A stretch of DNA of 64,000 nucleotides from an uncultured candidate division Zixibacteria bacterium (GTDB taxonomy: Bacteria > Zixibacteria > MSB-5A5 > SM1-73), in contig CAIVRH010000029.1 in NCBI GenBank assembly GCA_903908285.1, positions 102,037 to 166,036 on the forward strand. The letters are read 5' to 3'. Position 1 is the first letter of the stretch, and every line of letters begins with the position of its first letter. A program made the translations under genes and the position numbers. This document shows, in pieces, positions 5,115 to 32,232 of this stretch. Below the pieces are notes generated by a model. That model saw nothing but the letters and a program-made list of their open reading frames with translations, was not told where the DNA came from and did no database searches.

Positions 5115-5657
5115 ATGAACGGGGCCATGTTTAACAGTTTGGCTCGGTATATAGACAAGAACTATCCACGGGTCTCTTTCTCCGATCTATGCCGGGAAGC
5201 ATCCCTGAAGACCAACGTGTTTGCCGAATTGACTTGGTATCCGGATAAAGATTTCATAAAAGTAATGGAGTTTCTCAGTGAACAGACCGAAACCGATCTT
5301 TCCACCCTTTGGAGGGATTTCGGCCGGGAGACTTTCCATTATTTTGCAGACATATTTGGTGATTACCTGCATGGGATTAAAACCTTTCCCAATCTGATAA
5401 CGAACCTGAATCGGATTCATCAACAGATAAAACGGGATGGATTGGGAACTCCTCCCCTGCTGGAGTTTAAGGAGGCTTCTCCCGATCATTTCGAGATAAG
5501 GTATACCTCCGACAGGAAGCTTTACGATTTCTTCCTGGGAATGCTGGAGGGAGCCACAAAATATTACAAAACAGATACAAAGATTCTGGGGAAAAAGGAG
5601 CGCGGCAAACTCATCGTCACCATAACCACCAAACAGCTGGAGCCAGAACTGGTTTAA
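5115..5657 (+). CDS. stand-alone H-NOX (haem nitric oxide/oxygen-binding) domain protein
   Basis: About 180 aa. Candidate proximal His (NRIHQQI), GTPPLL, and the Y-x-S-x-R haem-propionate motif (IRYTSDRKLYDFFLGMLEGATKYY) in the same spacing as characterised H-NOX proteins. AGGGGG RBS before the ATG at 5115. The annotated ORF start at 4995 is probably too long. Confidence 0.55.
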   Translation: MNGAMFNSLARYIDKNYPRVSFSDLCREASLKTNVFAELTWYPDKDFIKVMEFLSEQTETDLSTLWRDFGRETFHYFADIFGDYLHGIKTFPNLITNLNRIHQQIKRDGLGTPPLLEFKEASPDHFEIRYTSDRKLYDFFLGMLEGATKYYKTDTKILGKKERGKLIVTITTKQLEPELV

Positions 5658-5842
5658 ATTAAGAAGAATATCAAAAGAGGGATAGAAAATGTTGGGGTGG
5701 AACTTCTCCGCTAAAAAGTAGAAGCTCCACCCTTTTATTATTGCCGGTTGGGATTCGGATGGCGATGATGAAGATATATTTTGTGAATTCAAGCCGACGG
5801 ACTTAAAATATGATTTGTATTTCTTATTTCCTCCGATGTTTG

Positions 5843-6625
5843 TCATTTCCTTCTTACCATGAACTCACCAAAGGAAGCGCAAATTTCGAATCCTAATTTT
5901 TCATAGCAGGAAATAGCGCTGTGGTTGTCTGCCTTGACGTTCAAACCGATGCAATCTATATTTTTGGACAGGGATTGACAAAGTTTGGCAGTGACCAGTT
6001 TGCCGTATCCTTTGCCTCTGGATGAAGGATGAGTGGTAATGTTCCCCAAAGCTGCCACCCTGTATTCCTCGGAAAAGACGTGAACCCCGGCAATGCTGAC
6101 CAGTTTACCGTCTTCCCGGATACCGAAATACTGATTGGTTTCCAGCATCCTTGAATCAAACCAATTCCCCGGATAGCTCTCTTCATATAGCTGAATCATA
6201 TCATTTTGATCCAACTTGGATAAACGGATAACCTGTGAGCAATCCAATTTCTTGATCACGGACCGATCCTTCAATGTCATCTTGTAGTGCACACCAAAAG
6301 ATTCGAGTTCGAAGCTGTCCTGAACAACCTTCTCCAATCCGGGGCTGAAATGAGCGTAGAATTTAGCGGGCAAAATAGGGAGAATCGACTTGAGCAAATT
6401 CGCCATGTAAGTCGGTGGTTCCGCCAGCGCCAAAAGTGTCGGCAGTGTTAGTCCGGTGTATAGCAAAGCTATGGCTTGAGGTATCTCATTATCAGTGAGG
6501 GCGTACCGGGTAGTATAGGGCCAAAAGAAATCGTCTAAATCTCCCAGCTCATAGATGTGTAGATCGATATTTTTCCGCAGGAAAAGCTCAATCGTTCTCT
6601 TGTCGTGTAAACATATCACCGGCAT
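5843..6625 (-). CDS. GNAT family N-acetyltransferase
   Basis: The C-terminal half has the acetyl-CoA binding motif RGKGYGKLVTAKLCQ...CYEKLGFE. Confidence 0.65.
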   Translation of the reverse strand: MPVICLHDKRTIELFLRKNIDLHIYELGDLDDFFWPYTTRYALTDNEIPQAIALLYTGLTLPTLLALAEPPTYMANLLKSILPILPAKFYAHFSPGLEKVVQDSFELESFGVHYKMTLKDRSVIKKLDCSQVIRLSKLDQNDMIQLYEESYPGNWFDSRMLETNQYFGIREDGKLVSIAGVHVFSEEYRVAALGNITTHPSSRGKGYGKLVTAKLCQSLSKNIDCIGLNVKADNHSAISCYEKLGFEICASFGEFMVRRK

Positions 6626-6953
6626 TCAGTCACCTTTTGATTGCTTCAACTATTTATAGAGCTTTTCGTCCCTCTTGTCAAGGGAGGACTGGTAGGGATT
6701 AGAGAATTCTGAGGAGCTCGGTCCTCCTGACTAACTACCTAAACTCACCCCTTTGTCCCCTCTCTTTTTAAGAGAGGGGATTTATGGTATTTCTGACCTT
6801 TCTGACCTTATGGTGAGAGTTTTCATTTTTGCTAAAGTGGTCTTGCTGTACAAGCTATGCTGTTCATACAAAAGGAGATAACAGATTTGCCATGCCGGTG
6901 TTTCTGACGTTTCTGACCTTACTGGGCTTTGTTTTTCTAATTTTTTCATCATT

Positions 6954-7496
6954 TTAATGCTTCTTTTGAGATAAAAGGTTGTCATTCCACAGGATAGCGG
7001 AAGAGCCGCTTGATGTTTTTACTTTTGTGAAGCCCAGGGTGGAGAGGAGTCGGCCTATCCGGTGATAAGTGAGCCGGTTTTCTTCGGATTTACCTTGATT
7101 AAAAGTATCGGTAATGGTTTTTACCGGAAGAATGCCATTCTCCACCTGAAACCTCAGCCCAAAAATAGTTGCTTTGATTTGAGACTCGAGGTGGTTGGGA
7201 TCGGGATAATGTTTTGGCAATTCTTCCTGTCTTATGGTTTCTATTTCGTCCCAGATGGATTTTTCGTCCCTATGGGTTTCATTCCCACCCTTAAAAGTTT
7301 CAGCCACCTTCTGTTTAAGCTGGATAGCTTTCAAGACATCCTGGACTCTGGGTTTATAGGAATCTTCATCCAACTTTTTGATGAGTTTATCGATTAAGGT
7401 TTCCAGGAACTTCAACAACTCGGAATCATCCCGTCTACTAGGCTCGGAATTGGAATCGAATGAATGGTCCATATAAATATCCTCGTTCAGTAACAC
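6954..7496 (-). CDS. hypothetical protein
   Basis: 180-aa ORF with coding-like composition. An ATTTTGAAT tandem motif lies immediately upstream. No recognisable domain. Confidence 0.4.
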   Translation of the reverse strand: MLLNEDIYMDHSFDSNSEPSRRDDSELLKFLETLIDKLIKKLDEDSYKPRVQDVLKAIQLKQKVAETFKGGNETHRDEKSIWDEIETIRQEELPKHYPDPNHLESQIKATIFGLRFQVENGILPVKTITDTFNQGKSEENRLTYHRIGRLLSTLGFTKVKTSSGSSAILWNDNLLSQKKH

Positions 7497-7691
7497 ATAA
7501 TGAATTCAAATTTCAAAATTCAAGATTCAAAATTGCAATTCAAAATTCTAAATTACTCATTATATGATTGCAGAAACCGGTTTACCTGCACTTTGCTATT
7601 ATTACTCCCCTCACTAATCCCGCCACTGTCCTTTTCACCATCGAAGTTGTACCGAATTTGTATTGTGGGGGAAAGAGAGAATATGGGGTAG

Positions 7692-7797
7692 AACCCCCCG
7701 AATCCCCCTTGTCAGGGGGATAATCCCCCTAATATCTTTAAAGGGTGAAGTTCCTTAGGATGAACTCCCTGTCAGTGTAACGGAGAGGGGGATAATA
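7692..7797. repeat. family-1 variant element (cccccttgtcaggggga ... ctccctgtcagtgtaacggagaggggga)
   Basis: Two related palindromes. A shorter copy lies at 8201-8235. Confidence 0.55.
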
Positions 7798-7928
7798 CGG
7801 TCAACGGTTCGACTTCCTTCGGCTTTACCTCTGGACATGTCGCTCACCATCTTCGACGGATGAAGCGCCCATACGCCCGGACGGGCCCCGTCTGGGGGCG
7901 CCCGTCTGGACGGATGGAACGGATTAAC

Positions 7929-7958
7929 ATAAAAAACGCCCGAAATAACAGTCGGGCG
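7929..7958 (-). terminator. Rho-independent terminator candidate
   Basis: Perfect 7-bp stem cgcccga/tcgggcg with an 8-nt loop, followed on the minus strand by TTTTTTAT. Confidence 0.45.
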
Positions 7959-8280
7959 CTACGCATACAAATTCTTGCTCGTCATGAACATCTTGTCAGT
8001 GACATTTAGTAAAATGGCAACGGAAATACAAAAGAGGAGTAAACCGAATGGTTCACCCCAGAGGCGTCCTTCGATCCTTCGATAAACTCAGGATGCTGAG
8101 CGAAGTCGAAGCATAAAGCTCAGGACTTCGTAAAGACTCTGCTACGCGGATTGGGTTCTCGTTGGATGATAACATCCAACGAGAGCGGGGCTTTTCGTCC
8201 TTGCAAACCCCCTGTTTCCCCCTTGTCAGGGGGATAAACCAGTATCGTCCTTCTGATAAGGAGGACAGTATGAGGACTTT

Positions 8281-8835
8281 TTACTTCACGACAAAACGCT
8301 CGATCCACTGTTCGAATGCTTGCAGGAATTTCTTCAGGTAATCTCTTGTCGAATCGTTGATCAAATTCCCTTTGTCGTCGAACAAGCTGGCAGCATTGCC
8401 GATGTATGCTTCTGGCTGTCCCATGGTGGGCACGTTGACGAACACCAGAGACTGCCTGAGGTGATGGTTGGCGCCAAAAGCACCGAGCGCACCTGTGGTG
8501 CAGCTGATGACCGCGCCCGGTTTACCGTTCCACGTGTTTTGTCCATATGGACGCGATCCCATATCGATGGCGTTTTTCAAAACGGCGGGAACCGAGCGGT
8601 TATACTCCGGTGTAACAAACAGAACGGCATCGGCCGATTTGACCCTCTGCCTGAATTCGTTCACTTCTTTGGGCGGATTTTCCTCGAGATCTTGATTGTA
8701 GAACGGCAGATTGCCGATTTCGACGATTTCAAGCTTGAGCGATTCCGGCGCCAGAACAATTAATGCTTTTGCTAATTTGCGATTCCACGAATCCCTACGC
8801 AAACTGCCGACAAAGACTGCTACATTCTTGTACAT
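8281..8835 (-). CDS. NADPH-dependent FMN reductase family protein
   Basis: 184 aa. MYKNVAVFVGSLRRDSWNRKLAKA...VLFVTPEYNRSVPAVLKNAIDMGSRPYG is the FMN_red/ChrR/ArsH-type fold. Confidence 0.8.
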   Translation of the reverse strand: MYKNVAVFVGSLRRDSWNRKLAKALIVLAPESLKLEIVEIGNLPFYNQDLEENPPKEVNEFRQRVKSADAVLFVTPEYNRSVPAVLKNAIDMGSRPYGQNTWNGKPGAVISCTTGALGAFGANHHLRQSLVFVNVPTMGQPEAYIGNAASLFDDKGNLINDSTRDYLKKFLQAFEQWIERFVVK

Positions 8836-8872
8836 AACCCTAAAATCCTTTCACCAAAAATAAGACTACATT

Positions 8873-8899
8873 AGAATAGTGTGAGGAGCACGGGATTCC
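8873..8899 (-). repeat. cassette-boundary element (attC-like imperfect palindrome), copy a
   Basis: agaatagtgtgaggagcacgggattcc, about 45 nt downstream of the stop of gene 8942-9322. rc reads GGAATCCCGTGCTCCTCACACTATTCT. Confidence 0.5.
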
Positions 8900-8941
8900 T
8901 ATCTTACTGATAATTGATCACCATATTCAGCTTTGAGTTCT

Positions 8942-9322
8942 TTACGAAGATACCTTTTGCGGAAGGAGCAGATAACCAAAACCGACCGCAAAGAAGAGAT
9001 AGATGATAACGATACCCCAGCCGAGCACATTCAAACCGCCGGAGAGCAAAATTGTCAGTGTGGCCACAAAGGCAACGGCATCATAGACGAATAAAGCCAG
9101 GATGATAGCCCACCGGGTGGCAGATGCTTCTGCGTTTCTGGCAAACCAGGTGAGCATGAGATTGCCGCAAAGTGCCGCCCCGTATTCCCTCGCCAACAGG
9201 GCGGCTCCCGAACCGAAAGAGGCGCCCAGAAGTTTCATAAGCGGTCCCGGCGCAAAGAGCAGGATTGGCGCGAATCCAATACAGACAACTGCCTTGATGA
9301 TCATCAGGGTTTTGAATTTCAT
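8942..9322 (-). CDS. small integral membrane protein
   Basis: 126 aa with four predicted hydrophobic helices. Confidence 0.45.
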   Translation of the reverse strand: MKFKTLMIIKAVVCIGFAPILLFAPGPLMKLLGASFGSGAALLAREYGAALCGNLMLTWFARNAEASATRWAIILALFVYDAVAFVATLTILLSGGLNVLGWGIVIIYLFFAVGFGYLLLPQKVSS

Positions 9323-9365
9323 CGAAACCCTCCCTCTTTTGAAAAGGTTATAGGTATAACTCTAT

Positions 9366-9689
9366 TTAAGCTACCGGACTCCATATATTGGCTGAAAAAG
9401 TGGCTGGTTCGATCAGCAGGTGAAAAGCCGACTGAATTTTCTTCATCCCCTCGTCGTCGAAAATCCTTTTATTTATCTTCTCGCTTTCTGCCAGGTTCTC
9501 GTACTCCCATATTTCAATGTACATGCCGGTCGGTGAACCGTAGGTCTGCTTGAAAAGCTTCCACGATATCACCCCGTCGAAAAGCTGGGCATGATCCTGC
9601 TTGTATTTGACGAACTCGTTCAGCAATGGCGTGAATTCTGCTTTTTTTTCTGCTTTCACAACATACGTTTCCACTACGAAGATACTCAT
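9366..9689 (-). CDS. ABM-like (antibiotic biosynthesis monooxygenase / stress-responsive alpha-beta barrel) protein
   Basis: 107 aa with the ferredoxin-like pattern ...FVKYKQDH...MYIEIWEYENLAESEK... Confidence 0.4.
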   Translation of the reverse strand: MSIFVVETYVVKAEKKAEFTPLLNEFVKYKQDHAQLFDGVISWKLFKQTYGSPTGMYIEIWEYENLAESEKINKRIFDDEGMKKIQSAFHLLIEPATFSANIWSPVA

Positions 9690-9759
9690 CTCTTCACCTC
9701 CTTCAAGCGAATTGAACTGCGCACTTGATAAATGAATGGTATCCGGGGCATGGTTTTCA

Positions 9760-9853
9760 TGATTTGGTGCTTGGTGCCAGCGCTGTTGCCAATTTACGGT
9801 TCCACGACTCCTTACGCAAACTGCCGACGAAGACTGCTAGATTCTTGTTCATA
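9760..9853 (-). pseudogene. degenerate 5' fragment of a FMN-reductase gene
   Basis: rc reads MNKNLAVFVGSLRKESWNRKLATALAPST*. About 85% nucleotide identity to 8760-8835 (the start of the intact FMN-reductase gene). Confidence 0.6.
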
Positions 9854-9940
9854 ATTACCTCTTTATGAAAGAGGATAATCTGTGTCAGGAGCTCGGAACA
9901 CATGACCACCGACTAGATGGAATAAATATATTATCCTTCT

Positions 9941-10712: not shown

Positions 10713-10766
10713 GTTATTTTATCAATCTCCTCTTCATCAGCTTGGTGCCGATGTAGAAAGCGGCAA
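10713..10766 (-). pseudogene. short fragment of an ABC-2 permease 3' end
   Basis: tatcaatctcctcttcatcagcttggtgccgatgtagaaagcggc matches 20545-20600. It is interrupted by a GC-rich palindrome. Confidence 0.5.
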
Positions 10767-10905
10767 TTCTGTAAGGGTCGCACAGACGTGCCCCCAGGCG
10801 GGAGCGTCCGCTCGTCTGGGCATTCATGCGACCCCCGCCTTTAGCGGGGCTGTAAGCCGCGGGCTTGACTTGTGGTGAGTTTATCGAACCATGAATCAAG
10901 CCCCT

Positions 10906-11060
10906 ACTTTATCAATCTTCTCTTCATCAGCCTGATGCCGATGTAGAAAGCGGCGGATTCGAGGAGAATGATGTATAAAAAGTCCATTAAAAGTCCCGGA
11001 GAAGGCTCGCCGGAGAAAGCGGAGCGGGAGATATTGACTACGTGGGTAAGGGGAACTCTT
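10906..11060 (-). pseudogene. degenerate copy of the ABC-2 permease 3' end (about 150 bp)
   Basis: Near-identical to the last ~50 codons of the permease gene at 20545-20700 (…SGEPSPGLALD…YIGIKLMKRRLIK), same orientation. Confidence 0.65.
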
Positions 11061-11189
11061 GATTAGACCTCGCCCCTCTCCCTTTAAGGGTGAACCCCGC
11101 CATATAGATTTTTAATATTTTTCTTACAGAGTGGCTTTAAGACGTGCTGAAAAACTTATTCTGAATTGTAGGGCATACACCTGCTCTAT

Positions 11190-12140
11190 TCAACCATGAA
11201 TGATCTGCTCGAGTAAGAATCCGGAGATATCGGTTTTGATCTGTATCCACAACGGGAGGTGGTCGGAGAGCTGGTAAGTGAATTCCTCTTTTTTCATACC
11301 GTCCGGGAAAAGTTCCTGGATATGGGCTTCGTCTATGAAGAAATCGAGCACGCCCCCTGCATTGCTAAAATTCTCCGGGTAGTTTGGATAATGGAGGATC
11401 TGATCATAGCGTTTACTTTTGGCGAGATCAGTGCCGGGGGCATCGAGGAGCTTATCGGGAATCTTCAGGCCGTATTTGGTGATGGCCTTGAACGTGGGGT
11501 CCTCGCGCGAGGGGATGTTGAAGTCGCCCATGATCATGAAGTCATGGTCTTCTGCAAATTTGTCCAGACGCTTGCCCTCGATCCAGGCGGCCAACATGGC
11601 TATTTCGCCCTCGCGCCCCTCCATGCTGTCGCCCCACCGAATGTGCGTGGTCAGCACCACGAAATCGAAGATGCCGGATTTGAAGGAAGCGAGGTAAGGA
11701 CTTCGCCAAAAGGACTTCTCGGACAAATATTCCTGACCTATTTTCTTGCGCGGCTCGTTCGCCTCGGCGGCCAGTCCGTTGAAGGTGGCAGCCCGCTGGT
11801 CATAAACATAAGCCACGCGTTCCCGGTTGCCGCCTAGGTCGGGGATGACGTCCGAGAAAACCGCGCGCCAGTAAGGTCCGAGGATTTTTAAAACCCGGCC
11901 GAGGTCAGCGAGATTGTCTCGCAATTCAACGATCCCAATCAGATCGAACTGGCCGAGGATTTCCGCAATGTAATGGATGGCCGCTTCACTGCGTGGTGTC
12001 TTGCCAAACTCCCGGATGTTCCAGGTGGCAATATTCAAGGTTTCGTCGAGTTTCGACGAGGGAATTTTCGCTGCCTGAATGCGCTTCTGCAAGGCAATCA
12101 AACCCCGGGCAATGTCCGGAGAAACATCTCCATGTTCCAT
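11190..12140 (-). CDS. endonuclease/exonuclease/phosphatase (EEP) family protein
   Basis: 316 aa. IATWNIREFG near the N-terminus, GDFN, and C-terminal SDHLPLW are the EEP catalytic motifs. No signal peptide. Confidence 0.75.
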   Translation of the reverse strand: MEHGDVSPDIARGLIALQKRIQAAKIPSSKLDETLNIATWNIREFGKTPRSEAAIHYIAEILGQFDLIGIVELRDNLADLGRVLKILGPYWRAVFSDVIPDLGGNRERVAYVYDQRAATFNGLAAEANEPRKKIGQEYLSEKSFWRSPYLASFKSGIFDFVVLTTHIRWGDSMEGREGEIAMLAAWIEGKRLDKFAEDHDFMIMGDFNIPSREDPTFKAITKYGLKIPDKLLDAPGTDLAKSKRYDQILHYPNYPENFSNAGGVLDFFIDEAHIQELFPDGMKKEEFTYQLSDHLPLWIQIKTDISGFLLEQIIHG

Positions 12141-12409
12141 AGGTATCCTCCTTTACCGCTTGTACTACTATTTATCAGTTATATGGAGCATCTAAGCTAC
12201 TAACTGACAATGAATAAGCAGATAGGTCAATTATCCTAAAGGATGATCGACAATTTTTCCCATCCAGCAGTCTTGCAGACATACTTAACCTACTATTACC
12301 GGGTCGTGACAGCACATAACTACCATCGAGCTAACGCAAGAGGGTCAGGTGTAGGTAGAACGTCACCCGGACCCTCCGGTTAGGCCAAATAGAAATAGTA
12401 GAGCAGCCA

Positions 12410-13246
12410 TCAATCAAATTTCAACTCGCGTTTGGTTGCCTCGCATTCCAACTGCGGAGTCTGGTTGTAGTGCCCTGCGTTCAGGTGGGCGCGGATTTTT
12501 GTCAGCACCTGTGCACGGGAAAGCGAATTGTTACAGGCGTACATTTCTTTGCAGAAATAGTAAGTGAACGCCCCATGCCAACCACCGGCGATATGGGCAT
12601 CCGCACTCGTCTGGTCGGCACGGCAGGCAGCCCAGAGGATGTGATGCACGATCCCCTTTTCCAGCAACCCGCGCGCGAGTCCGCGAGATCGCTTCCCTTC
12701 CACCTCGATGAATGCCTCCAACGATGGGGGCGGCAGGTAGCGCGGCGTTCGATCAAGCAGCAGGTCAACCGCCTTGAGTCCCGTACCGCTGTGGCAGGTA
12801 TCCAAGTAAACCTCCAAAAGCACATTGGGAGGAAGCTGGATGAACAAATCTCGCAGCTCGTCATCCACGATGACATGATTCCTGTCCCATTGGTTGCCTG
12901 CCTGGGTCAGGTCATGCGGGCAAAACGCCTCATCCGCACGATCAGGTTCATCGTGGTTTAAATCCGGCACCTGTGTGCCATGACTTGACAGGCTGAATAC
13001 CAAGTAGGAGTATTTGCCTGCTTTTGCGCCATCTACCATGGTTTTGAGGTTGCTCATGATATTGGCTTTTGTGGCTTGTGCATCGTGTAGCTGGGTAATA
13101 TCTGTGCCGGCAAATCCGAGCAGCTTCTGCAGCAAAGCCGACATTTCGTTGGCATCATTGACACAACCTTGCAACGTAGAACCGGGATAGTTCTTGAACT
13201 GATTGATTCCGACACATAGGGCTTTTCTGTTACTAGGCATAAGCAC
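12410..13246 (-). CDS. caspase-like peptidase (family C14)
   Basis: 278 aa. KALCVGINQFKN...LQGCVNDA, catalytic His in SSHGTQ, and catalytic Cys in DTCHSG. No signal peptide. Confidence 0.8.
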   Translation of the reverse strand: MLMPSNRKALCVGINQFKNYPGSTLQGCVNDANEMSALLQKLLGFAGTDITQLHDAQATKANIMSNLKTMVDGAKAGKYSYLVFSLSSHGTQVPDLNHDEPDRADEAFCPHDLTQAGNQWDRNHVIVDDELRDLFIQLPPNVLLEVYLDTCHSGTGLKAVDLLLDRTPRYLPPPSLEAFIEVEGKRSRGLARGLLEKGIVHHILWAACRADQTSADAHIAGGWHGAFTYYFCKEMYACNNSLSRAQVLTKIRAHLNAGHYNQTPQLECEATKRELKFD

Positions 13247-13490
13247 CTCCTTAGGTTGTGCTCGTTGGGATTGACAGGACCGTTCAGTAACGAGCCAGAC
13301 TAAGCCGGTCCCCTTTCATTGAACTTCATCCTCTGACTGATTTTCCCCTCATTTTTACAAAAGCACTCTTTTCCCTGGCATAATGTCAAGCGTCGGTGGC
13401 TGGGTGGGCGCTTTTTCCTCTCCGTCCACGAACACCCGAATCAGGCGACGGTTTAGCTTGACAGCAATTACAGCCTAACTCACTTTTGAC

Positions 13491-14438
13491 TTAAAACTTA
13501 AACTGTCCGGTATCGATCCACTCATTCTTTAGAACTGACCACCAATCAACAGCGAGTCCTTTCAACACATAGTCATAAGGGAGCCAACCATAACCGCCGG
13601 TACCCCATTCTGGACCCCAAGAGTTTCTGATGAGTAAGGCTCCTGTGGTTTCGACACCTCCCGGATTGGTGTTTTTAATCGTCATTCTATCGTCGTAACC
13701 AACGGCATCAATGGCATGACCACCTAAAATCTTCTCTCCGGGTGTGGGAAAAGGTATCTTTCCGGTTGTGGCAGCCTGGGATAAGGAACTATACACCGTA
13801 AAGCCGAACATCGAGGGTAGATAAGCAGCTAAATTTGTCTTGATCCGATTCAGCAGAGCATCCTTAGGAGTTCCAGGCGGATCATAACGGTAGTAGCTAA
13901 TCGCCTTGTAGCTCTGGGCGTAGGCATAGCAGAATGCCGGCGGCTCCAGATCAAAGTGGTAGGTTGGAACAATAGGCTCGCCGATTCCTTTATCGGTGTA
14001 CGGCCAATATTCCTCCGGGGGCACGCCAAATAATACCAATGCGCCCATGGTGGTACGAAGAAAGGCTCCGGTGTCTCCAGACCAGTGTAACATGTTTCGG
14101 GTTGCCTTATAAAGGAAGAGTCTGGAAGCATCAATATGTTTTCCGAAGGCCTTTTTCTCAAAATACTCTACTATTCCAACACCCGCATGGGCCGTGCATG
14201 AACCAAGACTAAGTTGGTTCTCGATAGGAGAGCACCAGGGCCTTAAATCTGCAGATACCGGCAGGCTTACTCCCGCCGGTTCCGCTACTCCTGCTTTCTT
14301 GAGCATGGCCTTAACAGAATCTGCCTGTCCCAAAGCTTTAAGCGTTTCAGGAATATCTTCTTGCTCTACCGTGTGGTCCCTGAAATCGGGATAATCCGGT
14401 AGCCATCCCATTCCCAATTTTTCAATGATCTCAGCCAT
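13491..14438 (-). CDS. papain-like cysteine peptidase (family C1)
   Basis: CSPIENQLSLGSCTAHA (oxyanion Gln plus catalytic Cys), GGHAIDAVGYDD (catalytic His), and NSWGPEWGTGGYGW. The start is taken at the internal ATG at 14438, which has a GGAGGTG RBS; the longer ORF start at 14537 is unlikely. Cytoplasmic. Confidence 0.8.
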   Translation of the reverse strand: MAEIIEKLGMGWLPDYPDFRDHTVEQEDIPETLKALGQADSVKAMLKKAGVAEPAGVSLPVSADLRPWCSPIENQLSLGSCTAHAGVGIVEYFEKKAFGKHIDASRLFLYKATRNMLHWSGDTGAFLRTTMGALVLFGVPPEEYWPYTDKGIGEPIVPTYHFDLEPPAFCYAYAQSYKAISYYRYDPPGTPKDALLNRIKTNLAAYLPSMFGFTVYSSLSQAATTGKIPFPTPGEKILGGHAIDAVGYDDRMTIKNTNPGGVETTGALLIRNSWGPEWGTGGYGWLPYDYVLKGLAVDWWSVLKNEWIDTGQFKF

Positions 14439-15146
14439 AATATACACCTCCAATTCAATTAGGACCTTAGTTTGTCGAGTTTTTCTACCAAAACAACCTA
14501 CAAGACAGCAATCCGCTTTGCTAACTAATCGCTTCACCTCCTTTCAGCGCCAATCATAATGCCGCCTAACTCTGAATATACTGCCCGGTATAACACCCGG
14601 GGTACCGCTCCGAGTGTTATATAATACACAGCAGAAAAAACTGTCTACTTGGTCATATCCGATGAAATATCAGGTGGTCACATCGAGACGCCGGTTTTAT
14701 CGCAGCGTCTTCTTTGCGTCAATAGAGATTCCTTCGTGTCTATTTTTATACAACTAAGTCAAGAACCTGATACCGCTAATATTTATCAAGTTTATAGGGA
14801 CTTAGCCTGCGAACCTATTATAACTACCCCTAATTATATTTCTGTATTCTATTCTTAAAAAATATAGGACTACTGTCAAATTTTGTCAAGCTTTTTTTAT
14901 AATATTTCTGAAAAATCGTTCCTACGGGGCTTGATGCCCCTTCCTCCAACATTGAGGTCTTAAAGACCGAAGGGCAGGATGAAGCTCTCTTGTGCGTTGG
15001 TAACCTATTGAGATTCAACACGAAAACGAGCAGAGTCTACCTTAAGCAGGATTATTTTTGGCATTTATTCAGGGCTTTATATGGGGATATTTATGATTAA
15101 TAATTTCTATCGACTAAGATTAATTGAGGATATTGCTTCCGACCGC

Positions 15147-15296
15147 TATTTTATCAATCTTCTTTTCATCAGCTTGATGCCGATGTAGAAAGCGGCGGTT
15201 TCGAGGAGAACGATGTACAAAAAGTCCAGCGCCAAGCCCGGTGAAGGCTCGCCGGAAAAAGCTCAAGCGGGAGATATTTACTGCGTGGGTAAGGTG
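15147..15296 (-). pseudogene. degenerate copy of the ABC-2 permease 3' end
   Basis: About 150 bp, same orientation, roughly 90% identical to 20545-20700. Confidence 0.65.
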
Positions 15297-15310
15297 GAGA
15301 GTTTTTCTTA

Positions 15311-15375
15311 AACCTCTCCCCCTGTCCTAAGGATCTTCGATATCCCACTCTCCACATTTGTGGAGAGAGGGACTA
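15311..15375. repeat. family-1 variant between the permease fragment and the FMN-reductase fragment
   Basis: aacctctccccctgtcc...cccactctccacatttgtggagagagggac. Confidence 0.55.
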
Positions 15376-15386: not shown

Positions 15387-15414
15387 AGAATAGTGTCAGG
15401 AGCACGAGGCTCCT
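15387..15414 (-). repeat. cassette-boundary element, copy b
   Basis: agaatagtgtcaggagcacgaggctcc immediately downstream of the FMN-reductase 5' fragment. rc has a GGAGC-ctcgt-GCTCC hairpin. Confidence 0.5.
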
Positions 15415-15424
15415 AACCTGCAAA

Positions 15425-15533
15425 CTTGCGTGGCTAAGGGCGCCAGCGCGATCAATGCTTTTGCCAATTTGCGATTCCACGAATCCTTCCGCAAACTGCC
15501 GACGAAGACTGCCACATTATAGTTCTTATTCAT
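15425..15533 (-). pseudogene. degenerate 5' fragment of a FMN-reductase gene
   Basis: rc reads MNKNYNVAVFVGSLRKDSWNRKLAKALIALAP... It matches 8735-8835 and is followed by a premature stop. Confidence 0.6.
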
Positions 15534-15544
15534 AATGATCCTTT

Positions 15545-15571
15545 AGAATAGTGTCAGTAGCGCGGGGCTCC
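15545..15571 (-). repeat. cassette-boundary element, copy c
   Basis: agaatagtgtcagtagcgcggggctcc, 5-30 nt downstream of the stop of gene 15576-16046. Confidence 0.5.
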
Positions 15572-15575
15572 AGAC

Positions 15576-16046
15576 CTACTTGCTCTTGCGTGTACACCGC
15601 CCTTTGTGTTTTTTTCTATCCCAAAATAGACTTCGCCAACTTTTAATCTCGAAGGGAACGAGGGCATTGTGCAGAGTTGAAGTACCTCTTGTCCGGACAT
15701 ATCGACCATTTTTCCGGCTCCAACCATGATCGTCGACAATTTTCTCTGCTTCAGAATAAGGCATTCCAAAGGCCCGGGTCTGCAACTCTGTCCCCACATT
15801 CCAAAGATAAACAATGTAGAGATCTGGAATTTTCAGATATTTCTGGTCCGTGAAGAACTCCTCTCCAGAAAAAGACTTCAACTGAAGAGGGAGGGCTCGG
15901 AAACCTTCATCCACGCAATCGGTATAGACGATGAGATCTATCCCTTCGTCAATGTCTGGGCGAGCAAACTTTATTCCCTCTCGGTAAAGCTTCTCTGCAA
16001 CGTAAGCTTCCCCGATTTTTTCGATTTGATGGCTCGATAGTTCCAT
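15576..16046 (-). CDS. small PD-(D/E)xK (Mrr-cat-like) nuclease-fold protein, hypothetical
   Basis: 156 aa. EKIGEAYVAEKLYREG...PDIDEGIDLIVY...LPLQLKS fits the D...D/E-x-K (QxK variant) pattern of Mrr-type catalytic domains. This is a weak call. Confidence 0.35.
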   Translation of the reverse strand: MELSSHQIEKIGEAYVAEKLYREGIKFARPDIDEGIDLIVYTDCVDEGFRALPLQLKSFSGEEFFTDQKYLKIPDLYIVYLWNVGTELQTRAFGMPYSEAEKIVDDHGWSRKNGRYVRTRGTSTLHNALVPFEIKSWRSLFWDRKKHKGRCTRKSK

Positions 16047-16088
16047 TTTATCTTTTCAGACTGGATATCTCGATTAAGACTCTTATCT

Positions 16089-16146
16089 CAAGTGCCCTGC
16101 GCACCTGAAAAACGAATAGTGGCAGGAGCATGAGGTATCTGACATA
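16089..16146 (-). repeat. cassette-boundary element, extended copy d
   Basis: caagtgccctgcgcacctgaaaaacgaatagtggcaggagcatgaggtatctgacata, downstream of the REC gene stop. Confidence 0.5.
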
Positions 16147-16205: not shown

Positions 16206-16952
16206 TCATGTTGGTTGTTTTTTCCCAACTTTGATAGGATTCGACCGACTCTCTGCAATTGTCGTAATGGATTTTTGCACCAAACTCTCAATGGAGTAAC
16301 AAAACTCTATATTTTGGAAACGTACAATCATAACGTCTTTACTAATATTCTCAACTTGTTCCGGCTTATATGCTGTATAGAAGATAACTGGGAGGTCCCG
16401 AATTACAAGATCATCATGTTTCTCGCGTAGTTCTTTTATTTGCTCCATACCACCGTAGGTAGCATTCCCCTGTTTGTCTCTCCATTGAATATCCGATATA
16501 ATCAAGTCAAAGTCATTATCTTCCTCGATTCTTTTCTTAATGGTTTCCGGTGTGGCTGATATAACCTCAATTCCCAATGCCCTCAACAAGCGCCTCTCAC
16601 CAACAACCACATGTGGATTATCGTCTATCCAGAGGATTCTTCCCCCCTGCGCTTCAGCAATTTTGGAACCCAAACTCGCAAGCAGTCTTCTGAGCTTCTT
16701 AGGTTGAGCATCTAACATTCCATATAACGCTCCCTGAACCTGCGGTTGTTCTAATTGCAACTCGACGCCACCAGCCTTAAAGTATTTCAGTCTTTCCCAA
16801 GGAAGAACCAAGATCAAAACTGCAACAACAAAAAGCACAAGAATAGTGGTATCCATATTGTGACTTGCGATATCATGCATTTTCAACCTCATTAATATAA
16901 TTAACATCGCGAAACCGGTTAGTCCGAACTTTATCCCGAGCCACGTTTTCAT
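16206..16952 (-). CDS. membrane-anchored stand-alone response-regulator receiver (REC) domain protein
   Basis: Two N-terminal transmembrane helices, then a canonical REC: ILWIDDNP (acidic pair), DLIISDIQW (phospho-acceptor Asp), VIFYTAY (Thr), YKP (Lys). No output domain and no kinase nearby. Confidence 0.7.
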   Translation of the reverse strand: MKTWLGIKFGLTGFAMLIILMRLKMHDIASHNMDTTILVLFVVAVLILVLPWERLKYFKAGGVELQLEQPQVQGALYGMLDAQPKKLRRLLASLGSKIAEAQGGRILWIDDNPHVVVGERRLLRALGIEVISATPETIKKRIEEDNDFDLIISDIQWRDKQGNATYGGMEQIKELREKHDDLVIRDLPVIFYTAYKPEQVENISKDVMIVRFQNIEFCYSIESLVQKSITTIAESRSNPIKVGKKQPT

Positions 16953-17090
16953 TTGTTACCCTCGCTTGATTGGTTGACCTAGTAAATGTTTGCTATTCAA
17001 CTATTAACTATATGGTTACTTCATCTCACATTTTTGACACTTACCAGCGACAAAAAGGATTAATGTGCATTGGTTCCAAAGATTCACAGA

Positions 17091-17147
17091 TCAAGTGCCC
17101 TGCGCACCAGACAAATGAATAGTGTCAAGAGCACGGGACTGCTGATC
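17091..17147 (-). repeat. cassette-boundary element, extended copy e
   Basis: tcaagtgccctgcgcaccagacaaatgaatagtgtcaagagcacgggactgctgatc, downstream of the ABC ATPase stop. About 80% identical to copy d. Confidence 0.5.
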
Positions 17148-17208
17148 TACCTACTATTTCGCCTCTCCAATCTGAAACTAAAAATCCTTAATAAATTTTT
17201 TATCTTAA

Positions 17209-19002
17209 TCAGAATTTTGGCAAATTAAACAAGGTGCCAGCCTGTCCCTCATCATTTAGTTCCCTGATAATTTCTTCTTTCTTGAATTCAATAACCTTGT
17301 CATTTTCATCCCTTGGTAAATCTGCAGTAATTATAGTCAAGATGTACTGCAATCCATAGGAACCACAATATTCCCTGACAAGTTCTAGAAAATTATTCTT
17401 CTTTCTGTTATCAAGGCCCTCAAGGATGCCATCATGGTAAACGAATCTGAAAAAAGAGCGTTTTGCATAATTTTTCAATATGGCCAAATCGAAAGCAGCG
17501 CAAAGTAGCTTCTTGTAGGTTGTTCCTCTGCCTTCGCTTGTTGCCTCCATAGTTTTTTCATCATGGACAATATCAGCACTAAAGTCAATATTGCCCATAG
17601 TATTAATCTTAATAGACAATAAAGCTGAAATATTCAAAACTGCTTTGATAATCCTGTCAAAATCATTTCTAATATCGGAATATAAGCTCGCTCCAGCCTT
17701 AATTTGGTCGTTGATATTGTCAACAAGCCCTTTTCTCTTCTGTTCATATCCATCTATCTCTTTTTGTATGACAGCAACTGAATCAAGAGTCTCAAGCTGA
17801 GAATGCAGTCTTACTAAATCAGTCTCCTGGTGCACTAAGCTTTTCTGTAGCAATTTAAACTTATCAAAAGTATCTTCTCCTCGTAATATTCTGAGAAGAT
17901 CCTCTCTTTTTGAATTTAAATCTCTCAGTTGTCCGCATACCGAATCCTGCTCTTGCTTCAAAGTTTGAAGCCTTTCTTTTAGTCTCTTATTTCTTTCAGC
18001 AGAAATATTCTCATTAAATTTTACTAAATCCGTGTAGCCTTTCATCAGTTTATCAGGAAAATGAATCTGTGTTTCCTCAAATATCTGTTTTACTTCATTC
18101 AAGTCAAAATTGACTTTGGCTTCTAGAGCATCCTGAATTTTCTCAATCTCATAATTAATGTTGTAAACCTGATCATTAAGAGAGGCGATTTCAGTCTCAG
18201 TCTTCTCGACTAATTCTTTATTAATACTGAGCTCTTTTTCATAAAAATTAAACCTATCTATCTTTTCATAAGCTTCTTTTATTTCCCTCTGCTTTATTTC
18301 AATGGCTCCTTTTAGCTTGTCATATTCCTCTGTCTTTGTAGTCAAGGTCTTTTTATATTCCGCCTTGTATTTCTCCCTGCTCTCTATTGTCTTATCTATT
18401 TCATATTTCTCTTTCAACAAAGAGTCATCAAAACCCAATAATTTTGCAAGATAAGGCTTCCATTGAGAATGTTCCCCAATGCTGAATTTGCTTATCTGGA
18501 AAACATCTTGATAATCGCTTTGCGTCCTCAAGAAATAAGAAACACCTTTCCGGTAAGGCCATGGTGCTATCGAATCAAGATCAAGATAGGAATTAAGACT
18601 GTCTACCGCCTTCCGGATTGGCATTCCGCTGTAATCCCATTGCTTTTCTCCATGATTTTTAAAATCCTGGAATTTATCGTCATGAATTTTGAAACATATC
18701 TTGGTATTGTTATCAACACATCGTTTGATGGTTAGATATTTACCTGAATTAAGCAGTATCTCCAGATAAAACTCGAATCCCCTGAACTCTTTTTTATTGT
18801 CATAAAGAAAGTGCCCATCTTTCAACTCCTTAAGTAAAAGAAAATCAATAAGATGAATAAGGAGGGTTTTACCTAGATTATGTGAATCTTTATAAGTTTC
18901 CTTGGGTCTTCTGACTTTCCCATAAATTACATTAAAGCCTTCATTAAAGTGGATGGGCTTAAATATCTCGTCTCTGTTTGAATATATCTTGCTTAGTTTC
19001 AT
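17209..19002 (-). CDS. SMC-like ABC ATPase with a long coiled-coil insert (Lamassu LmuB / ABC-3C ATPase-like)
   Basis: 597 aa. N-terminal KLSKIYSNRDEIFKPIHFNEGFNVIYG...SHNLGKT (Walker A). About 300 aa of KE-rich coiled coil. C-terminal ...GRGTTYKKLL...FFRFVYHDGILEGLD (signature / Walker B / D-loop analogues). Confidence 0.6.
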   Translation of the reverse strand: MKLSKIYSNRDEIFKPIHFNEGFNVIYGKVRRPKETYKDSHNLGKTLLIHLIDFLLLKELKDGHFLYDNKKEFRGFEFYLEILLNSGKYLTIKRCVDNNTKICFKIHDDKFQDFKNHGEKQWDYSGMPIRKAVDSLNSYLDLDSIAPWPYRKGVSYFLRTQSDYQDVFQISKFSIGEHSQWKPYLAKLLGFDDSLLKEKYEIDKTIESREKYKAEYKKTLTTKTEEYDKLKGAIEIKQREIKEAYEKIDRFNFYEKELSINKELVEKTETEIASLNDQVYNINYEIEKIQDALEAKVNFDLNEVKQIFEETQIHFPDKLMKGYTDLVKFNENISAERNKRLKERLQTLKQEQDSVCGQLRDLNSKREDLLRILRGEDTFDKFKLLQKSLVHQETDLVRLHSQLETLDSVAVIQKEIDGYEQKRKGLVDNINDQIKAGASLYSDIRNDFDRIIKAVLNISALLSIKINTMGNIDFSADIVHDEKTMEATSEGRGTTYKKLLCAAFDLAILKNYAKRSFFRFVYHDGILEGLDNRKKNNFLELVREYCGSYGLQYILTIITADLPRDENDKVIEFKKEEIIRELNDEGQAGTLFNLPKF

Positions 19003-19015
19003 TTTCTATTATTGT

Positions 19016-19264
19016 TTACGTATTATTTTTACCAATAAATTCCAATGAATCTGTCTGTAAGTGGTATTCGATCATGCCGAGTAAATATAAAAAATCCAAC
19101 GACGGCACAAAAACATGTTTTACATCTTCTCCAATCTTGCCAACCAAATACTGCAATACCTCACTATATTCCATTACTCTGTTATTCTCGAACAGCTTAA
19201 TAAGCATGGAGGATACCCTGACTACAGATAAGTCCAAATCCATATATTTTGTCGGGGTTATCAT
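19016..19264 (-). CDS. small alpha-helical 'middle component' (LmuC-like) of the ATPase module
   Basis: 82-aa ORF tightly sandwiched between the effector and the ATPase: 4-nt overlap upstream and a 13-nt gap downstream, which suggests translational coupling. Confidence 0.35.
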   Translation of the reverse strand: MITPTKYMDLDLSVVRVSSMLIKLFENNRVMEYSEVLQYLVGKIGEDVKHVFVPSLDFLYLLGMIEYHLQTDSLEFIGKNNT

Positions 19265-20199
19265 TTCTTCTCACCTATATCGCAATTACAGTACATATAA
19301 TGCAAAAACACATTTATCAAAGTTCGCGATTCCCTAAGTTCGGGATGCTTGTCAAGTATTGTATCGTAAAGATGCTCAAAAATTTCTTCGAATTTGGCAA
19401 ATTCATTCTTTCTTGTGATTATCTTCCCTTTCAACTCATCAATCGTATTGTAGTAGTAATCTGTATACTTCTTGTTTATCAGCTTCTTTAGGAAAGCTGT
19501 TATTGCATTAAAGGAAGACTCCGAATTTTCCTTGATATATTTAAAATACTCTTCACTCAACTTATTCAGCTCGTTCTTTGTTTCAAGGCTTACATAGTCG
19601 AACGAGTACTTGCTGTCAAATTCCGTAGCAACCTGCTCTCGGTCATTATAAAAAGCTACGATAACATCCCTTATGTCATCAGAGTGTATTCTTAATGGAT
19701 CTCTGAATTTCTCAAGGTTACAAGTTTTTACTATGGCAGGATTCGCATCAAGCCAAAGAGTAATCGCCTCAACTCCAATAATCTCAACATTGGAAATGCT
19801 AAGATTATTCTTGAGATAATCCGTTTGCTGCTGATGTGCTTCAGCAGTAAGTTTTCTGTTTGTGAAAATGAGATAATTATCAACTTCTCCATTTTGTTTT
19901 AACTTCTTAATTTTGGGGATTTCTTTGTCCAATATCTTAGTCTTAAAATCCGCATGAGAACAACTCGAGTTAGGGTTATTAGTCTTTTTTGCCTGAATAA
20001 TAAATTTTCCTGTCCATGGTCTTGCAGCACTTGGATACTGGTTTGAAGTGCCTTCAAACTTCCCATCTCTACCACCATCTGGCCCTTCACTGAAATTTAT
20101 GGTTCCAATTCCCAATATTTTTTGGCAAATATGGATAACCAGATCCTCAAATTTCTGTGTAGAAAGCTCGTGAAGATGATAATCCCTCATTATAAACAC
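19261..20199 (-). CDS. Mrr-type restriction-endonuclease-fold effector protein
   Basis: The N-terminus FEDLVIHICQKILGIGTINFSEGPDGGRDGKFEG...GKFIIQAKK matches the Mrr_cat pattern (F-E-x-L...G...G-DGG-D-G...IQ-x-K). The C-terminal ~170 aa have no recognisable domain. Confidence 0.55.
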   Translation of the reverse strand: MFIMRDYHLHELSTQKFEDLVIHICQKILGIGTINFSEGPDGGRDGKFEGTSNQYPSAARPWTGKFIIQAKKTNNPNSSCSHADFKTKILDKEIPKIKKLKQNGEVDNYLIFTNRKLTAEAHQQQTDYLKNNLSISNVEIIGVEAITLWLDANPAIVKTCNLEKFRDPLRIHSDDIRDVIVAFYNDREQVATEFDSKYSFDYVSLETKNELNKLSEEYFKYIKENSESSFNAITAFLKKLINKKYTDYYYNTIDELKGKIITRKNEFAKFEEIFEHLYDTILDKHPELRESRTLINVFLHYMYCNCDIGEKK

Positions 20200-20541
20200 C
20201 TCTTAACGTATACCAAATTACTTATTAATAAACTTATCTTAAAAAAATAGCTGTTAGATTTTGCCGCTTATTTAATCTATTATATTAGAAAGGAGATAAA
20301 AACCAAGAGAAAAAAGCCACTCAAATCTATATTTTGAAACTTGCCCATATCCAGCTTAAATTTGGAAGATCAGGTGTCATGCACACTTGACAAAAAAAAG
20401 TATCAAGAACACGTATCTCCTCATCTATTATTATCTATTCATAAACTATTATAATCATTCATGCCATCTTGTCAAGCACTTAAGAACAGTAATTATGCGT
20501 TTTTACATAATAATTTTTCTAACAAGCGCGGGCTTCGACCA

Positions 20542-21309
20542 CTACTTTATCAACCTTCTCTTCATCAGCTTGATGCCGATGTAGAAAGCGGCGGATTCAA
20601 GGAGAATGATGTATAAAAAGTCCAGCGCCAAGCCCGGAGAAGGCTCGCCGGAGAAAGCGGAGCGGGAGATATTTACCGCATGGGTAAGAGGAAGGAACTT
20701 GGCGAAGAATTTCATCCAACCGGGGAACCGGTCCAGCGGGAAAAATACTCCGGAGAAAAAGAGCATGGGGGTGATAATCAGCTCGGTATAGTAATTGAAG
20801 AAGTCGAAGTTCGGCGCAAACGAGGTTACGATCATCGCCAGCGAGCCGAACAAGATACCGATGAAAACCATCAAGACCAACAGAAGCAGAACGTTGACTA
20901 TCGAGACCGGATATACATGCATGAAAGTGGCAACCACCAGCATGAGCGACCCGCTGATCAATCCCCGGAAAGCTCCCCAGGCGACCTCTCCGGCTATGGC
21001 ATCCTCTGCGGATACGGGGGTGGCTATCAAAGAGTCGAAGAGCTTCTGGTAGGTGACCTTGACGAAGGTGCCGTATAAACACTCGAAAGTCGACGAGAGC
21101 ATCACCGAAGATACCAAAACGCCGGGGACGAGAAAATTCAGATAGGGCTTCCCGCCGAAATACCCCATATATGCGCCCATGCCGATGCCGAAGGTGATCA
21201 GATAGAAGAGCGGCTGCCCCAGACTGACCACGAAGGTGGTGAGAACGAACCTTTTGTATGAAATAAGGTTCCGGTAAAAGACATAATATATGCGGTAAGA
21301 AAGATTCAT
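20542..21309 (-). CDS. ABC-2 type transporter permease
   Basis: 255 aa with six hydrophobic helices. Paired with the upstream ATP-binding gene. Confidence 0.8.
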   Translation of the reverse strand: MNLSYRIYYVFYRNLISYKRFVLTTFVVSLGQPLFYLITFGIGMGAYMGYFGGKPYLNFLVPGVLVSSVMLSSTFECLYGTFVKVTYQKLFDSLIATPVSAEDAIAGEVAWGAFRGLISGSLMLVVATFMHVYPVSIVNVLLLLVLMVFIGILFGSLAMIVTSFAPNFDFFNYYTELIITPMLFFSGVFFPLDRFPGWMKFFAKFLPLTHAVNISRSAFSGEPSPGLALDFLYIILLESAAFYIGIKLMKRRLIK

Positions 21310-24649: not shown

Positions 24650-24712
24650 GGAAAAAATATAAGTGTTTTGAGATGGAATGTAAAGAGAAGGAAACAAATA
24701 AACCTCTCCCCC

Positions 24713-24762
24713 TATGTCCCCCTCTCCGTTACACGGAGAGGGGGATTAAAGGGGGTGAGGTT
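24713..24762. repeat. nested-palindrome intergenic element (REP/MITE-like family 1)
   Basis: cctctccccct...tccccctctccgt tac acggagaggggga...agggggtgaggtt: an outer inverted repeat enclosing an inner inverted repeat. Confidence 0.7.
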
Positions 24763-24967
24763 AAGAAAGATTTCCGGAAAAGAAAATGGGCGGGATATTC
24801 GTATGAACGCATACGCGATTCCCGCCCCTATGTTAATGGGATATACCGCAGAGGCATCCTTCGACTTCGCTCAGGACAAAAGTAAAGCCTCTGCTACGCG
24901 GATAGAGTTTTTGTTGGATGATAACATCCAACCAGAGCGGGAAGCAAACCCTTCAACGATTGATTCG

Positions 24968-26855: not shown

Positions 26856-26902
26856 AAATAGCTTATGATTTAAGATGGAAGGTAAAGAGAAGAAGACAAA
26901 AA

Positions 26903-26960
26903 CCTCACCCCCTTAATCCCCCTCTCCGTGTCACGGAGAGGGGGACACAGGGGGAGAGGT
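26903..26960. repeat. family-1 nested palindrome
   Basis: cctcacccccttaatccccctctccgtgtcacggagagggggacacagggggagaggtt. Confidence 0.7.
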
Positions 26961-27340
26961 TAAAACAGCTCTTCCACTAACCAGACCAATACTATAATGG
27001 AAATTAACGAATCGATCACTACCAGAAGGGAATATCTCACATCACGCCAAGTGACGTCGGTGGAGAATGGGGATTTGGTCAAGAGAAATTTGAATTTTTC
27101 GCCGGTGCGGGTAACTGCTACCTTCTGCCATCCTACAAGCAGTAAACGAACGATTAATATAAAAAGAAGTGCCAAAATAGCTATCTTGTAGCCAGTGAAA
27201 CCAGGCATATAAAATAATTATATCCATGTAAGCTGGGCACAATTGGTATTAACCATGCGGTTCATACCTTGTCCAGTCTTTCGAGAATCCGCCGGGGCTG
27301 GGGAGCCCCGGCTACGATATTATTACCTTCAAACAGATGA

Positions 27341-32158: not shown

Positions 32159-32232
32159 ACCTCTCCCCCTTAGTCCCCCCTACGGGCGTCTGCCTCTCCG
32201 TTTTACGGAGAGGGGGAGATAGGGGGTGAGGT
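32159..32232. repeat. family-1 nested palindrome, preceded by the same 50-bp AT-rich repeat at 32082-32140
   Basis: cctctcccccttagtcccccctacgggcgtctgcctctccgttttacggagagggggagatagggggtgaggt. Confidence 0.7.

Follow-up and report, generated by a model that had tools for sequence, protein, structure and literature searches.

A stretch of 64,000 nucleotides (nt) from an uncultured candidate division Zixibacteria bacterium (contig CAIVRH010000029.1; hereafter the window) carries on its minus strand a compact module of three genes, which is a member of the ABC three-component (ABC-3C; ABC, ATP-binding cassette) / Lamassu family in the broad sense. The module falls into a DUF2326/MC8/CTD12 branch of this family that has already been catalogued computationally. 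It is quite probably a three-gene anti-phage, possibly also anti-plasmid, system of the ABC-3C / Lamassu family. The three genes, in the order in which they stand in the operon, are as follows.

19261..20190, minus strand: effector gene (LmuA-like), 309 amino acids (aa); an alternative GTG start at 20199 gives 312 aa
19016..19264, minus strand: middle component gene (LmuC-like adaptor), 82 aa, ABC-3C MC8 family
17209..19002, minus strand: ATPase gene (LmuB-like sensor), 597 aa, SMC/Rad50-like ABC ATPase of the DUF2326/YydD family

All three genes run in the same direction in the list of open reading frames (ORFs) and form a single tight operon. The end of the effector gene (GAG AAG AAA TGA) shares the four nucleotides ATGA with the start of the adaptor gene (ATG ATA ACC), and a spacer of 13 nt, ACAATAATAGAAA, separates the 82-aa gene from the ATG of the ATPase gene; the tight packing, the overlap and the gap described in an earlier note on this DNA were all seen in the ORF list and in the sequence. 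The same note gave the first protein a length of 312 aa, and an ORF of this length does exist from the GTG at 20199. However, the ATG at 20190 (309 aa) is probably the true start, since the homologues are almost all 309 aa long and the 309-aa form appears in public gene calls. When the module was compared with a 91%-identical copy at another locus (L001), the ratio of nonsynonymous to synonymous substitution rates (dN/dS) was 0.068 for the effector, 0.074 for the 82-aa protein and 0.099 for the ATPase; the three genes are thus real and each is under purifying selection. The guanine-cytosine (GC) content of the module was 0.34-0.365 as against ~0.46 in the flanks, and the ORFs of the trio were uninterrupted in many genomes.

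The family assignment was derived from searches against the profile sets of Pfam (at gathering thresholds), NCBIfam and PADLOC. All three proteins scored above the Pfam gathering thresholds in families built for ABC-3C, namely Mrr_cat together with CTD12 for the effector, MC8 for the middle component and DUF2326 for the ATPase. The features that define ABC-3C were all present: a linked and co-directional trio, an ABC ATPase split by a coiled coil, a middle protein of an MC family, and a C-terminal domain (CTD) fused to the effector domain. The ABC-3C families were reportedly set out by Krishnan, Burroughs, Iyer & Aravind in 2020 and are encoded as Pfam PF10088, PF20295 and PF20279; their definitions were taken here from the Pfam descriptions and from citing papers. 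ABC-3C is equated with type II Lamassu in the literature, and a preprint identifies VcLmuC as MC3, the C-terminal domain of VcLmuA as CTD7 and that of the type I BcLmuA as CTD12. The arrangement of effector, small middle protein and coiled-coil ABC ATPase, which the earlier note had read as Lamassu/ABC-3C with an Mrr nuclease, is thereby upheld, as the Pfam families and the equation made in the literature agree on it. In Table S1 of Millman et al. 2022, the DUF2326 cluster has a defence score of 0.487 (q = 0) and is flagged as not previously known as defence.

The effector matched Mrr_cat over its N-terminal part (~residues 7-125; E 6.2e-6, 26.8 bits against a cut-off of 21) and ABC-3C CTD12 over its C-terminal part (~residues 165-306; E 8.6e-31, 107.8 bits against a cut-off of 25). 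An Mrr-type fold of the restriction endonuclease (REase) kind had been proposed from the motifs FEDL, GPDGGRDG and IIQAKK; all of them were found in this protein, and the Mrr_cat match above the gathering threshold points the same way. In an alignment of 27 effector homologues with identity down to 41%, D38, G39, D42, Q66 and K68 were invariant, and these residues make up the predicted D...QxK core of an Mrr-type PD-(D/E)xK nuclease. A word-indexed search returned 728 homologues of the effector, mostly of 309 aa. The AlphaFold model of the effector had a mean predicted local distance difference test (pLDDT) score of 80.7, and its Foldseek matches were weak, none reaching E<=0.001; the best were to Avs4, in its N-terminal part, and to folds of the REase type (EcoT38I, FokI and Mus81 among them). 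By analogy, CTD12 is predicted to be the docking/oligomerisation domain of the effector. For the middle component, the match to Pfam MC8 (E 1.7e-13, 50.9 bits, cut-off 25) was stronger than those to MC6 and MC7, and the 82-aa protein shares 37% identity with a Burkholderia plasmid protein that RefSeq names 'ABC-three component system middle component 8'.

The ATPase matched Pfam DUF2326 with an E of 1.4e-26, above the gathering threshold, and the best PADLOC model for it was the candidate PDC-M68B (E 2.2e-60, full length). Its motifs were located as follows.

D39-S-H-N-L-G-K45-T46: Walker A, with Asp in place of the first glycine
Around R159/Q161: Q-loop
T488-S-E-G-R-G493 (T-S-E-x-x-G): signature-like motif
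F-V-Y-H-D524-G525, then E528 and D531: Walker B

The N-terminal Walker A SHNLGKT (residues 40-46) and the C-terminal stretch FVYHDGILEGLD (residues 520-531), which the earlier note had marked as a combined signature/Walker B region, are both present; however, FVYHDG in this stretch is the Walker B, and the signature-like motif lies apart from it at residues 488-493. Across an alignment of 30 ATPase homologues, down to 41% identity, D39 was nearly invariant and E528 and D531 were invariant. The Asp in the P-loop, together with the D-G of the Walker B, which has no catalytic Glu at +1, suggests, speculatively, that ATP may be bound with slow or regulated hydrolysis. The AlphaFold2 model (pLDDT 87.7; predicted TM-score 0.71) showed an ABC head split on either side of an antiparallel coiled coil at ~residues 193-456. 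This insert is ~265 aa long; a coiled coil is thus present as had been claimed, but its length falls short of the ~300 aa given before. Its apex (residues ~295-340) carries the conserved residues F299, E310, L319, Y323, L326, F329, N330 and R337 and is free of cysteines, and therefore no zinc hook is present.

Several observations weigh against the assignment. The ATPase gave no match at E<=1 to Pfam DUF3732, a profile that the earlier note had put forward and that is the family of LmuB in type II Lamassu (V. cholerae DdmABC; Salmonella LmuACB, PDB 9hqu). The PADLOC LmuB model matched the ATPase only within the coiled coil (E 0.0058), the PADLOC LmuA models did not match the effector, and the PADLOC LmuC models did not match the 82-aa protein. 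The published consensus of short (type II) Lamassu, Gx4GK[S/T] for Walker A and hhhhD[Q/S/T/E] for Walker B (PMC12663957), is departed from by the window ATPase, which has DSHNLGKT and D-G, and the sequence identity between the two is ~12-13%. Sequence searches of the PDB (phmmer with each protein and hmmsearch with the family profiles) returned only coiled-coil noise and no Lamassu chain, and the CTD of the effector had no significant Foldseek match to a solved LmuA. A literature search found no experimental test of the DUF2326/MC8/Mrr-CTD12 branch; within the library searched, just two papers mention 'DUF2326', neither of them related. The PDC entries of PADLOC are described as untested candidates. 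For the system of the window, the stoichiometry, the trigger, the oligomerisation and the abortive infection are drawn by analogy from other systems.

Since the sequence searches of the PDB were silent, the link to solved Lamassu systems needed fold comparison. When the ATPase model was compared with the PDB by Foldseek, the integrative model of B. subtilis YydD-YydB ranked highest (3e-22), followed by LmuB chains of type II Lamassu and then by Smc and Rad50. For the effector, the lack of a fold match means that the link between CTD12 and LmuA rests on Pfam and on the statement in the preprint. As to the LmuB profile, which fared poorly on the window ATPase itself, the Burkholderia orthologue of the ATPase was matched almost end to end by the PADLOC LmuB model PDLC03859 (E 2.7e-10), and DUF2326 ATPases of the MC6/CTD10 type matched the same model at 6e-12 to 8e-15. 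Homology to LmuB is therefore supported transitively and not by direct profile membership. The DUF2326/MC8/Mrr-CTD12 branch is thus missed as Lamassu by the current PADLOC models, though fold, partners and context place it there.

The closest match in architecture was provided by the copies on plasmid NZ_CP014311 of Burkholderia sp. PAMC 26561 and on Agrobacterium pAt plasmids, which have the same gene order, sizes (~309-321, 82 and ~597 aa) and Pfam families as the window module. The identity to the Burkholderia copy was 36% for the effector, 37% for the middle component and 35.7% for the ATPase (the last by tblastn). No structural difference was seen from the Burkholderia and Agrobacterium copies; the window module is a new sequence in a Zixibacteria-like metagenome-assembled genome (MAG), and its cassette is bounded by lineage-specific repeats. 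An upstream helix-turn-helix (HTH) regulator accompanies the Burkholderia copy, whereas the window module has none there. In the core PDC-M68 examples, the ATPase stands together with MC6 and an effector of the CTD10 type; the window effector was not matched by PDC-M68A. In B. subtilis YydB-YydC-YydD (PDB-Dev-type model 9a6c), the ATPase YydD, after which the DUF2326 family is named, was the top Foldseek match noted above, and YydB is probably a phosphoesterase-type effector.

Structurally characterised Lamassu systems differ further. V. cholerae DdmABC (PDB 9uxl/9uxh) has a Cap4 effector with CTD7 and an MC3 adaptor, whereas the window module has Mrr with CTD12, and MC8. The type I Lamassu LmuA-LmuB of Bacillus cellulasensis NIO-1130 (PDB 9ux7) consists of two genes without a middle component, with a Cap4 effector and a DUF3732-type LmuB, and is unlike the window module. 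The Lamassu-Mrr of E. coli O150:H5 SE15 (SG108), the sole Mrr subtype validated by experiment, which acts by abortive infection and needs all three of its components (Millman et al. 2022), shares with the window module the three genes, an effector with an N-terminal Mrr_cat domain and a GxxGDxGxD...QxK-type motif, a small middle protein and an SMC-like ATPase. However, its LmuA (379 aa) carries CTD6, its LmuC (168 aa) is a winged HTH protein of MC2, and in its LmuB a canonical P-loop, GESDTGKS, is combined with a CxxC hook; the window module differs in all of these. Alignments by hhalign with the SE15 proteins were marginal (E 0.075 for the effector family against LmuA; E 0.0013 for the ATPase head against LmuB, of which the first 400 aa were used). 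On these sequence differences, the window module is of a different branch from the validated SE15 system.

Relatives of the module were found to be widespread, and the trio occurs in many phyla. The word-indexed search gave 1,204 homologues of the ATPase, and among the matches listed all were named or typed DUF2326/YydD; an exhaustive profile search resolved the ATPase family into 2,317 clusters at 50% identity, of which 711 scored below 1e-30. The trio (~309, 82 and ~597 aa) was present in 12/12 loci inspected (L001-L009, L036, L037 and L035, the last being the contig of the window itself), and it was kept down to ~36-43% identity in differing contexts. In L006 it stands beside a type III restriction-modification (R-M) system, in L005 beside DpnI and a Polbeta/HEPN gene pair, and L037 is from a Fimbriimonadaceae MAG. 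In a Woesearchaeota MAG (L036, positions 2774-9548; JGI 3300051636), a 52%-identical trio lies between a gene with an HSDR_N domain (HsdR) and HsdS/HsdM, with GmrSD and Cas1 near. This locus is a clear case of 'guilt by embedding' in a type I R-M locus, and with it the module crosses the boundary between bacteria and archaea. Conjugative plasmids of Burkholderia and Agrobacterium also carry the trio; its proteins are labelled there by RefSeq as 'ABC-three component system protein', 'ABC-three component system middle component 8' and 'DUF2326 domain-containing protein', and these plasmid relatives adjoin toxin-antitoxin (TA) genes such as HipA and RelB. The trio moves between genomes as a unit, often among restriction and other defence genes.

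The suggestion that the module is a new subtype is not supported, because every component belongs to a pre-existing family, RefSeq annotates the same architecture (on plasmids included), and the ATPase family already comprises the clusters counted above. As a defence system, the module thus adds little: it is one more case of a widespread and catalogued ABC-3C / Lamassu architecture. Being compact (3.3 kb) and having boundaries of its own, the cassette is nevertheless a convenient candidate with which to test a branch for which no experiment was found.

A possible mode of action can be drawn from structural papers on Lamassu, which describe an LmuA1B2C1 core together with sequestration, release and tetramer formation of the effector. 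If the module works like the solved Lamassu complexes of V. cholerae, Salmonella and Bacillus, two subunits of its ATPase would converge at the apex of the coiled coil distal to the heads, and the adaptor and the CTD12 of the effector would dock on this apex, keeping one effector molecule as an inactive monomer. The ATPase heads would sense free DNA ends or replication intermediates of the invader, upon which the effector would be released. The freed effector would then oligomerise through its CTD and its Mrr nuclease would degrade DNA indiscriminately, so that the infected cell would die or stall ahead of completion of the phage cycle (abortive infection).

A role other than phage defence was also weighed. 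The module might be mainly an anti-plasmid or anti-mobile-element machine, or an addiction/stabilisation module holding the cassette or island in place; V. cholerae DdmABC, a type II Lamassu, acts against both plasmids and phages, relatives of the module are carried by conjugative plasmids beside HipA and RelB, and the cassette stands within a mobile-looking array. However, the contexts of the relatives are those of classical anti-phage islands (R-M, GmrSD, Cas1 and DpnI), and Lamassu-family systems that worked when tested gave phage defence, so we regard a function that is not primarily anti-phage as improbable. The non-canonical P-loop and Walker B could alternatively mark a dead ATPase in a decaying operon that merely hitch-hikes. 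Such decay is very unlikely: the deviations are nearly invariant over 30 homologues down to 41% identity and are therefore a family trait, dN/dS was 0.07-0.10 in all three genes, and the ORFs are intact in many genomes.

Least credible of all, with hardly any probability left to it, is a housekeeping SMC/Rad50-like ATPase of the SbcC/RecN type that serves repair or chromosome maintenance with accessory proteins. The NCBIfam matches to Rad50, TrlF and ASRP were far below cut-off and confined to the coiled coil, with nothing above cut-off; no Mre11/SbcD partner was present, and the partners carry the ABC-3C-specific MC8 and CTD12. The low GC content, the portability of the cassette, its differing location in close relatives and its patchy distribution, plasmids included, also speak against a housekeeping function. 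The earlier note had named a grouping with RecN/SbcC-type proteins or conserved non-defence neighbours as evidence against a defence role; no RecN/SbcC family matched above cut-off, and the neighbours vary among relatives and are often defence genes. We thus return to defence by an ABC-3C / Lamassu system as the preferred reading.

The context of the module as part of a cassette array is a more unusual aspect of the locus than the defence module itself. The features concerned are as follows.

17117..20419, minus strand: portable 3.3-kb cassette with the three genes, defined by nucleotide homology to L001-L004
20367..20429, minus strand: upstream boundary element, a degenerate copy of a ~65-nt repeat (nhmmer E 9.4e-7; aligned with the L001 boundary)
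17087..17151, minus strand: downstream boundary element, with the ~65-nt repeat in full (nhmmer E 2.3e-20), ~58 nt past the ATPase stop
8871-8908, 9706-9757, 15387-15422, 15546-15580, 16083-16146, 17087-17151 and 20367-20429, all minus strand: the seven copies of the repeat in the window
20448..20475, minus strand: promoter-like site TTGACA-16-TATAAT (12/12 with the sigma-70 consensus), a candidate from a consensus scan

By blastn, the cassette was 88.8% identical over 3,305 nt to the loci L001-L004, where it stands at another genomic position in other metagenomes, and the homology stopped at both ends; none of the L001 flanking genes tested was found in the window. At the downstream end, the homology to L001 broke in the middle of the element, after CTATTC, and many of the repeat copies are left halves only that end after the same CTATTC. 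The consensus of the repeat, GTAGGTCAGGAGCCC-CGTGCTCCTGACA-CTATTCATT-TGTCAGGTGCGCAGGGCACCTGACCTAC, can be read either as a pair of 9-bp hairpins or as a single imperfect palindrome of 28 nt, and its core is CGTGCTCCTGACACTATTC|ATTTGTCAGGTGCGCAGGGCAC. Exact matches to the left arm of the element were almost confined to MAGs of Zixibacteria and MAGs that carry the label 'uncultured Ignavibacteria', which is a pointer to the lineage of the host. With the repeat profile, arrays of copies in the same orientation were found in Zixibacteria-like MAGs (L013-L032), spaced by 0.5-1 kb, each copy just 3′ of a small ORF without a Pfam match; one of these loci (L032) has five copies in 2.6 kb. A tblastn search with the XerD-like protein of L001 returned nothing in the window, and in the other MAGs the large ORFs beside the arrays were ordinary genes (GNAT, PGA_cap, TPR, catalase) with no integrase nearby.

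A reading of the element as a classical attC site was rejected: it lacks GTTRRRY/RYYYAAC boxes, single copies fold no better than shuffled sequences, and there is almost no covariation in the alignment. The layout resembles that of an integron or of a cluster of attC sites lacking integron-integrases (CALIN). The repeats could be either the sites of an integron-like capture system or an element of the repetitive extragenic palindromic / bacterial interspersed mosaic element (REP/BIME) type that merely attracts recombination. Should the arrays serve as a platform for recombination, the view of integrons as stores of defence genes would extend to an uncultivated phylum and to non-canonical sites. 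We consider it rather doubtful that two things hold together, namely that the DUF2326/MC8/CTD12 branch is a mechanistically distinct relative of Lamassu, for example a sensor that binds ATP without hydrolysing it, and that the double-hairpin repeats are the recombination sites of an undescribed integron-like capture system, by which defence cassettes such as that of the window would be shuffled.

The promoter-like site lies ~260 nt upstream of the effector start, between the stop of an ABC-2 permease gene and the upstream repeat, and is outside the segment shared with L001-L004; the cassette may thus be driven from the flank by this candidate promoter. Further copies of the 3′ end of the permease gene (20532-20693) stand at 15135-15321, 10901-11076 and, in part, 10715-10764; likewise, the 5′ end of an FMN-reductase gene (8747-8851) is found again at 15439-15544 and 9782-9854 (83-94% identity in both cases). 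Since both gene ends are repeated in between, the ~11.7 kb separating the permease and FMN-reductase genes resembles a tandem insertion of two or three modules, each seemingly bounded by duplicated fragments of the flanks, and the defence cassette is part of the first of them. Two other contigs with an identical permease (L033 and L034) are fragments of the same arrangement and are uninformative on the empty site.

Directly downstream of the ATPase gene, a repeat-bounded cassette of its own (16206-16952, minus strand) encodes a 248-aa protein with an N terminus that is hydrophobic by eye; it gave a sub-threshold match to Response_reg (1.6e-6, 28.7 bits, cut-off 30.2) and no PADLOC match. A conserved fourth component at this position was considered and dismissed, as the 248-aa ORF has no relation to the 205-aa ORF that follows the cassette in L001. 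The next cassette (15576-16046, minus strand) encodes a 156-aa protein with a weak, sub-threshold match to DUF4365 (5.7e-4), a domain reported from 'Divona', which comes from integron cassettes of Vibrio and has been validated as a defence system (10.1101/2024.07.02.601686). A neighbouring inserted module (11190-14537, minus strand; GC ~0.52) contains a caspase-like Peptidase_C14 gene (12410-13246; PADLOC 'caspase', 1.6e-16), a papain-family Peptidase_C1 gene (13491-14537) and a gene for an endonuclease/exonuclease/phosphatase-family protein (11190-12140), and it may be another conflict system.

Elsewhere in the window, another repeat family of ~40-100 nt, partly palindromic and unrelated to the element of the cassettes, occupies intergenic positions near MnmE, DUF362/dockerin and gyrA (24664-24764, 26866-26963 and 32193-32240). 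Three tandem paralogues of ~1.6 kb were seen on the minus strand at 54585-60053 (54585-56261, 56506-58050 and 58368-60053); they are 68-77% mutually identical, and comparison of the window with itself showed them to be internally repetitive in a ~160-nt register.

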